DNA from: an uncultured Chloroflexia bacterium
Lineage (GTDB): Bacteria > Chloroflexota > Chloroflexia > Chloroflexales > Herpetosiphonaceae
Assembly: GCA_963767035.1 (NCBI GenBank)
Contig: CAVYBW010000001.1
Location: 2,438,547 to 2,502,546 of the forward strand
Direction of reading: 5' to 3'
Length of the DNA: 64,000 nt
This document shows positions 55,693-57,301 of this stretch, piece by piece. The notes below the pieces were generated by a model. The model ran no database searches. It was given only the letters and a program-made list of their open reading frames with translations, and was not told the origin of the DNA. Within the stretch, counting starts at the first letter, position 1. Each line of letters begins with the position of its first letter. The translations under genes and the position numbers were made by a program.

Positions 55693-55749
55693 ACGAATCC
55701 TCCTTGATTCTGGAGTGGGTTGAACATCAATGTCCAATGCGAACTCATT

Positions 55750-55763
55750 TGGGATCGCTCCCA
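55750..55763. promoter_or_regulatory. CebR/CelR-type operator box TGGGATCGCTCCCA
   Basis: 13 of 14 match to the actinobacterial consensus TGGGAGCGCTCCCA. It lies 58 nt upstream of the SBP start and next to the lacI-family gene. Confidence 0.55.
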
Positions 55764-55817
55764 AAAACTCCCGTGTTCGATCAGACCATGCGATCTAGTG
55801 AATCCGCTGGGTATGGT

Positions 55818-56855
55818 TTAGGATACCCGTGGCCCGCACGATTGGCGTAAGACTAACGAAGGTGAGAGTCGGATGTGTTGCTGCAGCGGTGGTCGGCCTT
55901 CGAGATGGTCAAGCAACATCGTGGCGGCGGTACTGCCAAGTTTCTGAATCGGTTGGTGAATTGTTGTCAGGGCGGGAGTTGTGTAGGCCGCGCCTGGCAC
56001 ATCGTCAAAGCCTATCAGCGAAATATCGTGGGGAGCATGTAACCCGGCCTCGTAAATAGCCCGTAAGGCTCCTAATGCCATGGTGTCGCTGGCCACAAAG
56101 ACAGCGCTTGGTCGATGTTCAAGGCTCAGCAATTGGCGCATTGCAGCATAGCCACCCTCTTGGGTGAATTCGCCCTCGATCATCAATTGATTTTCGATTG
56201 CGACCCCTGCTTGCAACATCGATTGCTTATACCCATCACGGCGATCAATGGCGGTTTTCATCTGCAGTAGGCCGGTAATTGCCCCAATCCGTCGATGGCC
56301 AAGTTGCAATAAATGGTTGACTGCCAGCACTGCGCCTGCCCGATTAGCAACATCAACGGTATACATTGGTTGCATATAGGGGTGTTCGCCAATTAAGACC
56401 AACGGCATTTGGTCGTTAATCAACAAGGGCAAAACTGGGTCATCAATATCGCTCGAAAGCATCAACAGACCGTCGGTCATCCGACTGCGTAATACCCGCT
56501 GATAGAAATCCCGTTCTTGCAGCCCCGTCACCATCGAGAGCATCACCGAATAATCCCGTTCAGAACAGGTTTCGGTAATTCCTTGGATGATTAATGGGAA
56601 GAATGGGTCGGTGAAGATTACTGCCGAGCTGCGTGGGATCAACAGGGTCACCACATTGGTTCGGCGGCTTGCCAGACTGCGGGCGGCTGCCTGTGGAACA
56701 TATTCTTGCTCGCGAATAACTTCCAACACCCGTTGTCGCACTTCAGCCCGCACGCTGGGATGATTATTAATTACCCGCGAAACGGTTGAGCGTGAAACAT
56801 TGGCAAGTTGGGCTATTTGGCGAATCGTGAGTTGTTCCACGGTGAAACCCCACAA
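55818..56855 (-). CDS. LacI-family transcriptional regulator (CebR/CelR-like)
   Basis: HTH 'LTIRQIAQLANVSRSTVSRVINNHPSV' plus a periplasmic-binding-protein-like sugar domain. It is divergent from the GH9 gene and upstream of the ABC operon. Confidence 0.8.
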   Translation of the reverse strand: MWGFTVEQLTIRQIAQLANVSRSTVSRVINNHPSVRAEVRQRVLEVIREQEYVPQAAARSLASRRTNVVTLLIPRSSAVIFTDPFFPLIIQGITETCSERDYSVMLSMVTGLQERDFYQRVLRSRMTDGLLMLSSDIDDPVLPLLINDQMPLVLIGEHPYMQPMYTVDVANRAGAVLAVNHLLQLGHRRIGAITGLLQMKTAIDRRDGYKQSMLQAGVAIENQLMIEGEFTQEGGYAAMRQLLSLEHRPSAVFVASDTMALGALRAIYEAGLHAPHDISLIGFDDVPGAAYTTPALTTIHQPIQKLGSTAATMLLDHLEGRPPLQQHIRLSPSLVLRQSCGPRVS

Positions 56856-57038
56856 ACTGATTTAAATTACTTTGGAACCGGTCTCAGAAGTCTTGGGGAG
56901 AGAATAAAAGATCTTATGTCTTTTGTCAAGTTGTGCGGTATCAAAAATATATTTTAGTTTTCTTTATAGCTGTGTAGTAGGTTTTTAGGGCTTTACAATA
57001 GCCTAAAGCTAAATCTAAAAACTTTTTAAAATTTACGC

Positions 57039-57067
57039 TTGACAAGTTGCAATGAATCATTTACGAT
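57039..57067 (+). promoter_or_regulatory. Sigma70-like promoter for the GH9 gene (TTGACA, 17 nt spacer, TACGAT)
   Basis: The -35 hexamer is at 57039-57044 and the -10 at 57062-57067. Confidence 0.45.
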
Positions 57068-57094
57068 ATTTTTACTTTCATAACAACCTGTGCT

Positions 57095-57108
57095 TGGGAG
57101 CGATCTCA
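57095..57108. promoter_or_regulatory. CebR/CelR-like operator half-degenerate box TGGGAGCGATCTCA
   Basis: 11 of 14 match to TGGGAGCGCTCCCA. It lies between the promoter and the GH9 start. A second copy is at 57175..57188. Confidence 0.45.
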
Positions 57109-57174
57109 TTCTATCACTGCATCATGCTCATCACTCCCCTCGCGGTTCAGCAAACACGTATTTGCTAGTAGCAT

Positions 57175-57188
57175 TGGGAGCGGTCTCA
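57175..57188. promoter_or_regulatory. Second CebR/CelR-like box TGGGAGCGGTCTCA
   Basis: Direct repeat of the 57095 box, 80 bp apart. Confidence 0.45.
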
Positions 57189-57301
57189 ATCAACCTACAA
57201 GCCAGCTGAACCCACAGTAGCTATGAAAATTATGCTGTGCGCTGTTGCACACCAGTACATGCAATCAACATTAAAGCCTTCAATGCAGGAAGGAGTATCC
57301 A

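Follow-up and report, generated by a model that had tools for sequence, protein, structure and literature searches.

The locus described here raises the question of how a member of the Chloroflexota came to carry cellulase genes next to DNA boxes of the kind read by actinobacterial cellulose regulators, and which genes these boxes would control. Herpetosiphon is a genus of predatory and cellulolytic soil bacteria within the Chloroflexota, for which little genetics is available. The window, i.e., the whole stretch of 64,000 nucleotides analysed, contains a LacI-family gene, a sugar transporter with a β-glucosidase, and GH9 and GH48 cellulase genes. For comparison, CebR from Streptomyces (S. griseus, S. 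reticuli, S. scabies and S. coelicolor SCO2794) and CelR from Thermobifida fusca were considered, with the 14-bp palindrome TGGGAGCGCTCCCA of the CebR/CelR type as reference box. CebR is the repressor of this box and is released by cellobiose or cellodextrins; one of its functional sites lies within a coding sequence (PMC4358012). A first-pass annotation of the window had proposed that the entire regulon was horizontally acquired and of actinobacterial type.

Gene content of the locus

The coordinates of genes, candidate boxes, promoters and hairpins are given in Table 1. Pfam analysis bears out the domains named in the first-pass annotation: SBP_bac_1, two permeases, GH116, LacI, GH9-CBM3-CBM2 and CBM2-GH48. 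The transporter is a CUT1 set of one SBP_bac_1 gene and two BPD_transp_1 genes, and no ABC ATPase gene is present between 49824 and 55692 in the ORF list or by Pfam. The solute-binding protein (SBP) starts with MQRSRRPFITWLSLLTLISMILVACGG and contains the lipobox LVAC, and the GH116 enzyme is probably cytoplasmic because its N-terminus has no signal peptide. The start of permease 1 is uncertain, as the ORF is longer than the 325 aa annotated in H. aurantiacus. The LacI protein combines a LacI-type helix-turn-helix with a periplasmic-binding-protein-like effector domain (Pfam), and GH48 homology stops at the native TAA (62612-62614) owing to an apparent 1-nt deletion near 62570 that shifts the frame. 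A second apparent frameshift affects a GH8 gene around 63270-63340.

Table 1. Genes, candidate operator boxes, promoter-like sites and hairpins of the locus (window coordinates).
Feature	Position	Strand	Location or evidence	Score
GH116 β-glucosidase gene, 774 aa	49824..52148	-	Pfam Glyco_hydr_116N E 2e-87, GH116 catalytic domain E 9e-131	
Hairpin, 17-bp stem, T-rich tail	52208..52244	-	permease 2/GH116 gap; terminator-like scan	
ABC transporter permease 2, 297 aa	52272..53165	-	Pfam BPD_transp_1	
ABC transporter permease 1, ORF 341 aa	53177..54202	-	Pfam BPD_transp_1	
Solute-binding lipoprotein (SBP), CUT1-type sugar ABC transporter, 485 aa	54235..55692	-	Pfam SBP_bac_1, SBP_bac_8	
Candidate S1, weakest candidate of the six, TGAGAACGCTCTCA	54357..54370		3' part of SBP ORF	17.8 bits
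Candidate S2, TGGGAGCGGTCTCA	55599..55612		inside SBP ORF, +81 to +94 from ATG	17.8 bits
Candidate S3, TGGGATCGCTCCCA	55750..55763		LacI-SBP spacer, 57 nt before SBP ATG (55692)	25.0 bits
LacI-family repressor gene, 340 aa, GTG start at 56840	55818..56840	-	Pfam LacI E 2e-16, Peripla_BP_3 E 4e-42	
Candidate S4, TGGAACCGGTCTCA	56873..56886		LacI leader, about +14 from predicted transcription start	14.4 bits
Promoter-like site of LacI gene, TTGACA-17-TATTCT	56901..56929	-		10/12 match
Promoter-like site of GH9, TTGACA-17-TACGAT	57039..57067	+		10/12 match
Candidate S5, TGGGAGCGATCTCA	57095..57108		about +27 from predicted GH9 transcription start	18.0 bits
Candidate S6, TGGGAGCGGTCTCA	57175..57188		about +107, 80 bp from S5	21.2 bits
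GH9-CBM3-CBM2 cellulase gene, 852 aa	57302..59860	+	Pfam	
CBM2-GH48 cellulase gene, ORF as read 941 aa	59952..62777	+	Pfam	
Terminator-like hairpin with T run, 3' of GH48	62719..62750	+	kept in H. aurantiacus	

The LacI gene had been described as divergently placed between the transporter and cellulase genes. It is divergent from GH9 only and lies upstream of the transporter genes in the same direction. The parallel drawn with cebEFG-bglC applies by function only, with one CUT1 SBP, two permeases and no ATPase gene in the operon, but the last gene encodes a GH116 instead of the GH1 enzyme BglC; a GH1 is found in the related locus L083.

Gene order is that of the H. aurantiacus locus, and no GC anomaly is seen, the content being flat throughout. 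The GH116 gene is kept in synteny across five Herpetosiphon genomes and also in the loci L080 and L070. The hairpin ahead of it may act as a partial terminator or stabiliser; in L080, the gap between permease 2 and GH116 measures just 8 nt at this place. A second copy of the hairpin was not found in the window, and its reading as a repeated element was dropped. The hairpin and the lack of a box of its own leave the membership of GH116 in the regulon uncertain. At the other end of the locus, the hairpin behind GH48 likely marks the end of the GH9-GH48 unit.

Candidate operators and promoters around the LacI gene

The window contains six matches to TGGGAGCGCTCCCA with at most two mismatches, compared with 0.29 expected, and none of 100 shuffled sequences reaches six. 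A matrix derived exclusively from other Chloroflexota genomes detects eight matches of at least 10 bits (0.32 expected), six of which cluster in a 2.9-kb stretch that includes the LacI gene (54357-57188); the remaining two, also strong, lie inside the ORF of a GH26 mannanase. S3, the top-scoring site of the window, differs from TGGGAGCGCTCCCA at a single position, and four of the six locus sites are 2-4 bases off a perfect palindrome. S3, S5 and S6 had already been placed by the first-pass annotation exactly where they are found here, together with the GH9 promoter, between which and the GH9 start S5 and S6 are located. S1, S2 and S4 and the two sites in the mannanase ORF had been missed.

All six locus sites are kept in five Herpetosiphon genomes, including H. 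aurantiacus DSM 785, NSE202, H. llansteffanensis and H. giganteus, and S3 is identical in all five. S1 occurs in other Herpetosiphon genomes, with 12.4 bits in H. aurantiacus, and no match of at least 10 bits was found for it in L080. In the footprint alignment A2, the boxes, the two promoters and the ribosome site stand out as conserved islands in an otherwise variable spacer, and this pattern holds even against L080, a genome in which the LacI protein is merely 75% identical. Both promoters are conserved in this alignment, L080 included, the LacI promoter with both hexamers; the predicted transcription starts lie near 57074 (plus strand, GH9) and 56894 (minus strand, LacI gene). S4 is an invariant island there too and corresponds in position to the box found next to the LacI gene in other Chloroflexota loci. 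S5 and S6 are likewise conserved islands, located in a GH9-GH48 leader that is long (about 228 nt). The two are 76-80 bp apart in Herpetosiphon genomes but 86 bp in L080; helical phasing is thus not conserved, and DNA looping is not claimed. The promoter scan yielded no convincing promoter for the SBP gene. A match of the form TGGACA-18-CAGAAT was rejected: with its -10 hexamer running into the ribosome-binding site, almost no leader would be left.

Four of the eight strong matches are intergenic and four lie inside ORFs, and in linkers rich in Pro and Thr the half-site GCTCCCA is coding sequence for Ala-Pro-Thr. The matches might accordingly be by-products of composition or coding that have no regulatory role, and both S2 and the GH26 site at 23046 are indeed located in linker-like A-P-T coding sequence. 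This explanation is hardly credible given the four intergenic sites, which form conserved islands by promoters while the rest of the spacer varies, the yield of only 0.3 matches in shuffled sequences, and the presence of the motif upstream of LacI genes in other Chloroflexota (see below). The S2 equivalent in L080 reads TGGAACCGGTCTCA; the DNA is kept, while the protein has GS in place of AP. Statistics and comparison therefore support reading the boxes as CebR/CelR-type, operator-like sites that belong with the neighbouring LacI gene, the transporter with its β-glucosidase, and GH9(-GH48).

Origin of the regulator, its box and the cellulases

The LacI protein is 96% identical to Haur_0297 of H. 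aurantiacus and 44% identical to Cagg_1685. According to the regulog tables of RegPrecise (Ravcheev 2014; PMC4052901), Haur_0297, Cagg_1685 and Chy400_1181 are the regulators of regulog 'Caur_1157', a computational reconstruction over three Chloroflexi genomes that is assigned to β-glucoside utilization with a β-glucoside effector. Only the numbers 5, 3 and 7 are given for this regulog; the same tables place it in no CelR orthologous group and list the Chloroflexi regulators separately from CelR(3). The window represents a different species or strain of Herpetosiphon, and its LacI protein qualifies as an ortholog of this group by the two identity values and by the gene order of the locus. The regulon of the closest type strain, H. 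aurantiacus, is already listed in RegPrecise (PMC4052901), and the locus is no new kind of system. What is added here is its breadth across the Chloroflexota. A literature search on Herpetosiphon in combination with CebR or GH48 retrieved nothing relevant.

A box is found no more than 300 nt upstream of a LacI relative in 81 of 83 Chloroflexota loci, with representatives from Chloroflexia, Anaerolineae, Caldilineae, Ardenticatenia and Thermoflexus. The box density is 5.2 per kb in these upstream regions, compared with 0.016 per kb elsewhere, and an unbiased count of 8-mers ranks TGGGAGCG at the top, present in 72 of 77 upstream regions. Downstream of the LacI genes of this clade, solute-binding proteins are encoded in 48 of 71 loci, in addition to GH94, GH130, GH1, GH3, GH6, GH9 and GH116 enzymes. 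In other Herpetosiphonaceae, the LacI gene is followed either by GH9-GH48-GH5-GH5-GH8 or by SBP-permease-permease-GH1 and a GH9-GH48 fusion, the linkage between LacI and cellulase genes being common to this family.

It is conceivable that the boxes are genuine and read by another LacI paralog, or that the adjacent regulator responds to a different sugar, such as other β-glucosides, mannobiose or glucose. H. aurantiacus has 12 LacI-family genes, and the effector is given merely as 'β-glucoside' in the RegPrecise tables (PMC4052901). GH130 or GH2 enzymes with a mannosidase domain are neighbours in 8 of 71 clade loci, implying that the inducer could differ between members, and two strong boxes reside in the GH26 mannanase gene. 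Against this possibility, the box accompanies the LacI clade in almost every locus, in most cases directly upstream of the LacI gene itself, which is the usual signature of a cognate, autoregulated factor, and the neighbours in Herpetosiphonaceae are cellulases and β-glucosidases. A different reader or sugar is consequently considered unlikely.

In its DNA-reading residues (VS/GRS/GTVSRVIN and YVPxxAARxLA), the LacI protein agrees with CebR of S. coelicolor, although the two proteins share only 36% identity overall. When a profile of the clade is compared with solved structures, 5ysz, which we take to be T. fusca CelR with cellobiose, ranks first with 286 bits, 32 bits ahead of RbsR (254), with PurR at 253; CebR, too, has its closest chain in 5ysz (E 1e-95). 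As a single sequence, the LacI protein scores slightly better with E. coli PurR (219 bits) than with 5ysz (201 bits), and orthology to CebR is therefore not established. Its 120 best homologs show 56% identity or more, and those with a name all belong to the Chloroflexota, as do 77 of the 80 best genomic loci by their labels. Within this phylum, identity drops with taxonomic distance, from 99% and 96% to 75%, about 62% and 44-60%. Relatedness was judged by identity rankings rather than rooted trees, here as well as for the two cellulases.

The GH9 enzyme is 66-71% identical to enzymes of Streptosporangiales and Micromonosporales with a GH9-CBM3-(Fn3)-CBM2 layout, and the GH48 enzyme is 65-68% identical to actinobacterial enzymes, while its nearest relatives are from Chloroflexota (70-80%). 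The closest actinobacterial GH9 homologs (about 70%), from Streptosporangiales, are encoded next to GH48 behind the same box, in GH5-GH48-GH9 clusters, whereas the order here is GH9 followed by GH48. The Thermobifida enzymes are of the type GH9-CBM3c-CBM2 (Cel9A) and CBM2-GH48 (Cel48A). The resemblance to these architectures noted in the first pass holds for the layouts GH9-CBM3c-...-CBM2 and CBM2-...-GH48, with about 65-71% identity in the catalytic regions and with subtype c of CBM3 tentatively assigned from its position right after GH9. The window enzymes differ from those of Thermobifida and Streptosporangiales in having no Fn3 or Big_7 module by Pfam, and other Herpetosiphonaceae carry CBM3 where CBM2 is present here.

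These similarities bear on the proposal that regulator, operators, transporter and cellulases were acquired together from an actinobacterium, e.g., a Thermobifida relative. The box matches the actinobacterial CebR/CelR consensus exactly, the literature found for it deals with actinobacteria only, and the enzyme identities, the shared GH9 layout and the boxed GH48-GH9 pairs of Streptosporangiales all point in the same direction. Such an import is nevertheless very improbable for the regulon as a whole: the relatives of the regulator and the loci carrying its box are found in Chloroflexota, identity decays along the taxonomy of this phylum and is low towards CebR, the nearest GH48 relatives are Chloroflexota as well, GC content is flat, and the glucosidase is not a GH1. 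The presence of the box in 81 of 83 loci, together with the nearest relatives and the 36% identity to CebR, indicates a resident regulator and operator, and on these comparisons the pair is native to the Chloroflexota. The degree of identity of GH9 and GH48 fits an old transfer between phyla, and it was probably these genes alone that were exchanged long ago. The idea of acquisition thus survives only for the enzymes, by their cross-phylum similarity.

Predicted regulation and its bearing on transferred cellulases

The evidence is best explained by a local sugar regulon under a CebR/CelR-like LacI repressor that would comprise its own gene, the transporter with GH116, and the GH9-GH48 operon. 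A probability of roughly 0.78 is assigned to this reading, in which binding and repression, the inducing sugar and the promoters used are predictions from the DNA. The repressor has no C-terminal tetramerisation tail and is probably a dimer, which would read 14-bp palindromes of the TGGGAGCGCTCCCA type. S4, just past its own promoter, probably serves autoregulation, and S5 and S6 in the GH9-GH48 leader would block initiation or elongation. Transcription of the transporter-GH116 genes likely starts at the LacI promoter, at a weak internal one, or at both, and S3 in front of the SBP gene, probably with S2 and perhaps S1, could hold these genes down. Basal cellulase activity would release cellobiose and cellodextrins from cellulose, to be imported by the CUT1-type ABC system, which like cebEFG has no ATPase gene of its own. 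The imported sugar would bind the repressor and cause it to leave the DNA, and cytoplasmic GH116 would cleave the sugar to glucose.

This predicted regulon resembles the CebR/CelR systems in its LacI-family regulator, its palindrome and the residues of recognition helix and hinge. Its targets, as judged from gene context and site position, are also alike: a CUT1 transporter without an ATPase gene, a β-glucosidase and secreted cellulases. Sites downstream of promoters and within coding sequence are a further common feature (PMC4358012). Differences concern the phylum, the low identity, the inducer role, which is a prediction here, and the orientation of the regulator gene, which points the same way as the transporter genes and probably stands first in their unit. 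The result is a testable regulatory map of the Herpetosiphon cellulase system with six sites, two promoters and three transcription units. Furthermore, the supposedly 'actinobacterial' CebR box emerges as the predicted operator of a LacI clade across most Chloroflexota classes, which can be used for annotating carbohydrate regulons in many uncultured Chloroflexota genomes.

The locus is also relevant to the question of how a new host gains control over transferred cellulase genes. GH9 and GH48 are preceded by the box in both phyla, though the regulators are only 36% identical. A tentative and rather doubtful extension of the local regulon is that the CebR reading head and its operator constitute one module shared by Chloroflexota and Actinomycetota. 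With the same box being read in both, exchanged cellulase genes would then be regulated on arrival, without rewiring. The intragenic sites in the SBP, GH26 mannanase and actinobacterial GH48 genes might, in this case, be working auxiliary operators or roadblocks.

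Boxes around the LacI-family gene

The window contains six matches (at most two mismatches) to the 14-bp CebR/CelR-type operator palindrome, compared with 0.29 expected, and none of 100 dinucleotide-preserving shuffles attains this number. A scan with a matrix built from 121 sites, all from non-Herpetosiphon genomes, returned eight matches of at least 10 bits (0.32 expected), the lowest of which (S4, 14.4 bits) is well separated from the next score, 7.0 bits. Six of the eight fall inside 2.9 kb around the LacI gene (S1–S6, Table). S3 differs from the Streptomyces CebR operator TGGGAGCGCTCCCA by one mismatch and lies 57 nt upstream of the ATG of the gene for the solute-binding protein (SBP), while S5 and S6 are located between the GH9 promoter-like site and the GH9 ATG. 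The boxes and this promoter-like site are present as described in the first-pass annotation, and its domain calls were borne out by Pfam (SBP_bac_1, two BPD_transp_1 permeases, GH116, LacI, GH9-CBM3-CBM2 and CBM2-GH48). At the level of sequence analysis, the reading of the boxes as putative regulatory sites is well supported.

S1–S6 were all found in H. aurantiacus DSM 785 and three other Herpetosiphon genomes. In the aligned LacI-GH9 spacer, conservation is concentrated in islands: boxes S4, S5 and S6, the GH9 promoter, both hexamers of the LacI promoter and the ribosome site. The stretches in between vary, and the pattern persists against L080, another Herpetosiphonaceae locus with a LacI protein of only 75% identity. 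S2 retains 12 of its 14 bases in L080 despite a change of the encoded Ala-Pro to Gly-Ser, which points to a constraint on S2 at the DNA level.

Features of the locus and of neighbouring regions, in window coordinates
Feature	Position	Strand	Context	Bits
S1	54357		SBP ORF, 3' part	17.8
S2	55599		SBP ORF, +81 from ATG	17.8
S3, TGGGATCGCTCCCA	55750-55763		LacI-SBP spacer	25.0
S4	56873		LacI leader	14.4
S5, TGGGAGCGATCTCA	57095-57108		GH9 leader	18.0
S6, TGGGAGCGGTCTCA	57175-57188		GH9 leader	21.2
SBP ATG	55692	minus		
LacI gene	55818-56840	minus	GTG start, 340 aa	
LacI promoter-like site	56929-56901	minus	TTGACA-17-TATTCT	
GH9 promoter-like site	57039-57067		TTGACA-17-TACGAT	
GH9 ATG	57302			
Hairpin, permease 2-GH116	52208-52244	minus	17-bp stem	
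Terminator-like hairpin	62719-62750		after GH48	
GH26-Mann_GBD-CBM2 ORF	21964-24102	minus	secreted mannanase	
GH26 box 1	22773-22786		deep inside GH26 ORF	20.6
GH26 box 2	23046-23059		deep inside GH26 ORF	20.1
Missing G	~62570		GH48 3' end	
Native GH48 stop	62612-62614			
End of extended GH48 ORF	62777			
GH8 ATG; stop	62778; 63337			
GH8 frame break	~63270-63340			

Regulator and box in Chloroflexota

The association was analysed in 83 loci: 79 with regulator relatives (43–99% identity), 76 of them labelled Chloroflexota (Chloroflexia, Anaerolineae, Caldilineae, Ardenticatenia, Thermoflexus and Ktedonobacterales), and four Herpetosiphonaceae loci. In 81 of the 83, the 300 nt upstream of LacI contain a box with at most two mismatches, and box density is 5.2 per kb in these upstream stretches versus 0.016 per kb in the other 1.1 Mb. 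In a motif-free count of 8-mers, TGGGAGCG ranks first (72 of 77 LacI upstream regions), followed by words tiling the same palindrome and then by the -35 word TTGACAA. Three close regulator relatives with the same box (loci L053, L076 and L040) come from assemblies that bear the labels 'uncultured Thermotogae' and 'Candidatus Sumerlaeota'. If these bins are not mislabelled, the module reaches beyond Chloroflexota.

Box pairs upstream of LacI are frequently spaced by 73–75 bp, about seven helical turns, and this fixed phase outside Herpetosiphon is a hint that two dimers may bind cooperatively. Such pairs occur in many Anaerolineae and other Chloroflexota, e.g. in loci L009, L010, L014-L018, L025, L031, L034, L054, L056 and L070; the Herpetosiphon GH9 pair is spaced by 76–80 bp. 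In the Herpetosiphonaceae loci L080, L081 and L083, a box (9986-9999) ends one base before the annotated LacI ATG, which has no visible ribosome-binding sequence before it. Either these starts are mis-called, or binding occludes translation initiation on DNA or RNA.

Streptomyces CebR represses genes for cellulose, cellodextrin and cellobiose utilisation via TGGGAGCGCTCCCA, is released by cellobiose or cellopentaose, and also binds a site inside txtB at +1507 (PMC4358012). The regulator shares only 36% overall identity with S. coelicolor CebR (SCO2794), but the recognition helices (VSRSTVSRVIN versus VGRGTVSRVIN) and hinges (YVPQAAARSLA versus YVPNTAARALA) are nearly the same. In a search of the PDB with a profile of the Chloroflexota clade, 5ysz, which we take to be T. 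fusca CelR with cellobiose, ranked first (286 bits; RbsR 254, PurR 253), and it is by far the solved chain closest to SCO2794 (E 1e-95). As a single sequence, the regulator scores slightly higher with PurR than with 5ysz, and tables of Ravcheev et al. 2014 hold a Chloroflexi group separate from the actinobacterial CelR(3) group (PMC4052901). Our conclusion is that the regulator probably works like CebR, a likeness in working that may or may not reflect orthology.

The supplement of the same study lists the Chloroflexi regulog 4804 'Caur_1157', annotated as beta-glucoside utilization with a beta-glucoside effector, with the members Cagg_1685, Chy400_1181 and Haur_0297, the H. aurantiacus ortholog of the regulator; its table numbers 5, 3 and 7 are read here as genomes, regulons and sites (PMC4052901). 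Going by this entry, a computational reconstruction of the regulon already existed for the nearest type strain, and our finding is in part anticipated by RegPrecise. In the literature searched, the nine papers containing the box sequence are all on actinobacteria.

Proposed control of transporter and cellulase genes

The regulator protein stops directly after the core domain, suggesting from length and alignment that it lacks a LacI-type tetramerisation helix. Its gene was described in the first-pass annotation as divergently placed between the two units, which holds relative to GH9 only, as it lies upstream of the transporter genes on the same strand. The promoter scan of the locus revealed no credible promoter of the SBP gene's own, and no terminator was found in the LacI-SBP interval. 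The LacI-SBP gap in L080 is just ~50 nt, and in most Chloroflexota loci boxes are followed by LacI and then directly by transporter or enzyme genes. These observations suggest that LacI is the first gene of the transporter unit, within which S3 and S2 could then act as internal blocks or cover a weak internal promoter. S4 is centred at ~+14 from the start predicted by the LacI promoter-like site, a classic position for putative autoregulation. The GH9 leader comprises ~228 nt, with S5 and S6 centred at ~+27 and ~+107, and GH48 follows GH9 at 91 nt.

The SBP is a lipoprotein, the GH116 N-terminus contains no signal peptide, and no ATPase gene is present among the genes of the transporter operon. 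The context suggests cellobiose or cellodextrins as inducer. A strong hairpin with a perfect stem and a T-rich tail, single-copy in the window, separates permease 2 from GH116, which makes the degree of coupling of GH116 to the transporter unit uncertain. The hairpin might dampen the expression of GH116 or stabilise the mRNA upstream of it. In L080, both genes are just 8 nt apart.

Origin of regulator and enzymes

Among the best 120 homologs of the regulator, identity is nowhere below 56%, and every named one belongs to Chloroflexota. Identity is 99% to Herpetosiphon sp. NSE202, H. llansteffanensis and H. giganteus, 96% to Haur_0297, 75% and ~62% to other Herpetosiphonaceae, 43–61% to Anaerolineae and others, 44% to Chloroflexus and 36% to Streptomyces. 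The two highest values place the window in Herpetosiphon, phylum Chloroflexota. The drop with taxonomic distance fits a regulator resident in Chloroflexota. GC content is flat over the locus (0.50–0.53).

For the GH9 catalytic region, identity is 83–84% to close Herpetosiphonaceae and 66–71% to enzymes with the same layout from Streptosporangiales and Micromonosporales. The latter range is not below the values for a further Herpetosiphonaceae GH9 (70%) and a Chloroflexia GH9 (68%). GH48 is nearest to Chloroflexota enzymes (70–80%), then to those of Myxococcota and Actinomycetota (64–69%). Two Streptosporangiales loci have the order GH5, CBM2-GH48, GH9-CBM3-Fn3-CBM2. In both, GH48 is preceded by a perfect box at a distance of 31–85 nt and has another box at the very beginning of the gene itself. 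The cross-phylum identity of the enzymes, about twice that of the regulator, fits a transfer of the enzyme genes between phyla long ago, in either direction. The proposal of a horizontally acquired, actinobacterial-type regulon is thus not sustained for regulator and operators, and for the enzymes it is no more than plausible.

LacI and cellulases are linked in three different arrangements inside Herpetosiphonaceae. In L083, a single 1737-aa protein (18249-21050) contains GH9, CBM3 and GH48, a fusion of the separate neighbouring cellulases of the window.

The two GH26 boxes, 273 bp apart, match the S6/S2 and S3 sequences exactly when read as the reverse complement; the window scan found no box upstream of the GH26 gene. 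Both are kept 14/14 in L092, a metagenome relative (88% nucleotide and 72% third-position identity), with a chance of roughly 0.04, which is suggestive only. Relative to H. aurantiacus, one G is missing from the GH48 3' end (TGG in place of TGGG), 45 nt ahead of the native stop, which extends the ORF up to the GH8 ATG. GH8-like coding goes on in another frame past the GH8 stop. These frame breaks are either sequencing indels or mark two damaged genes.
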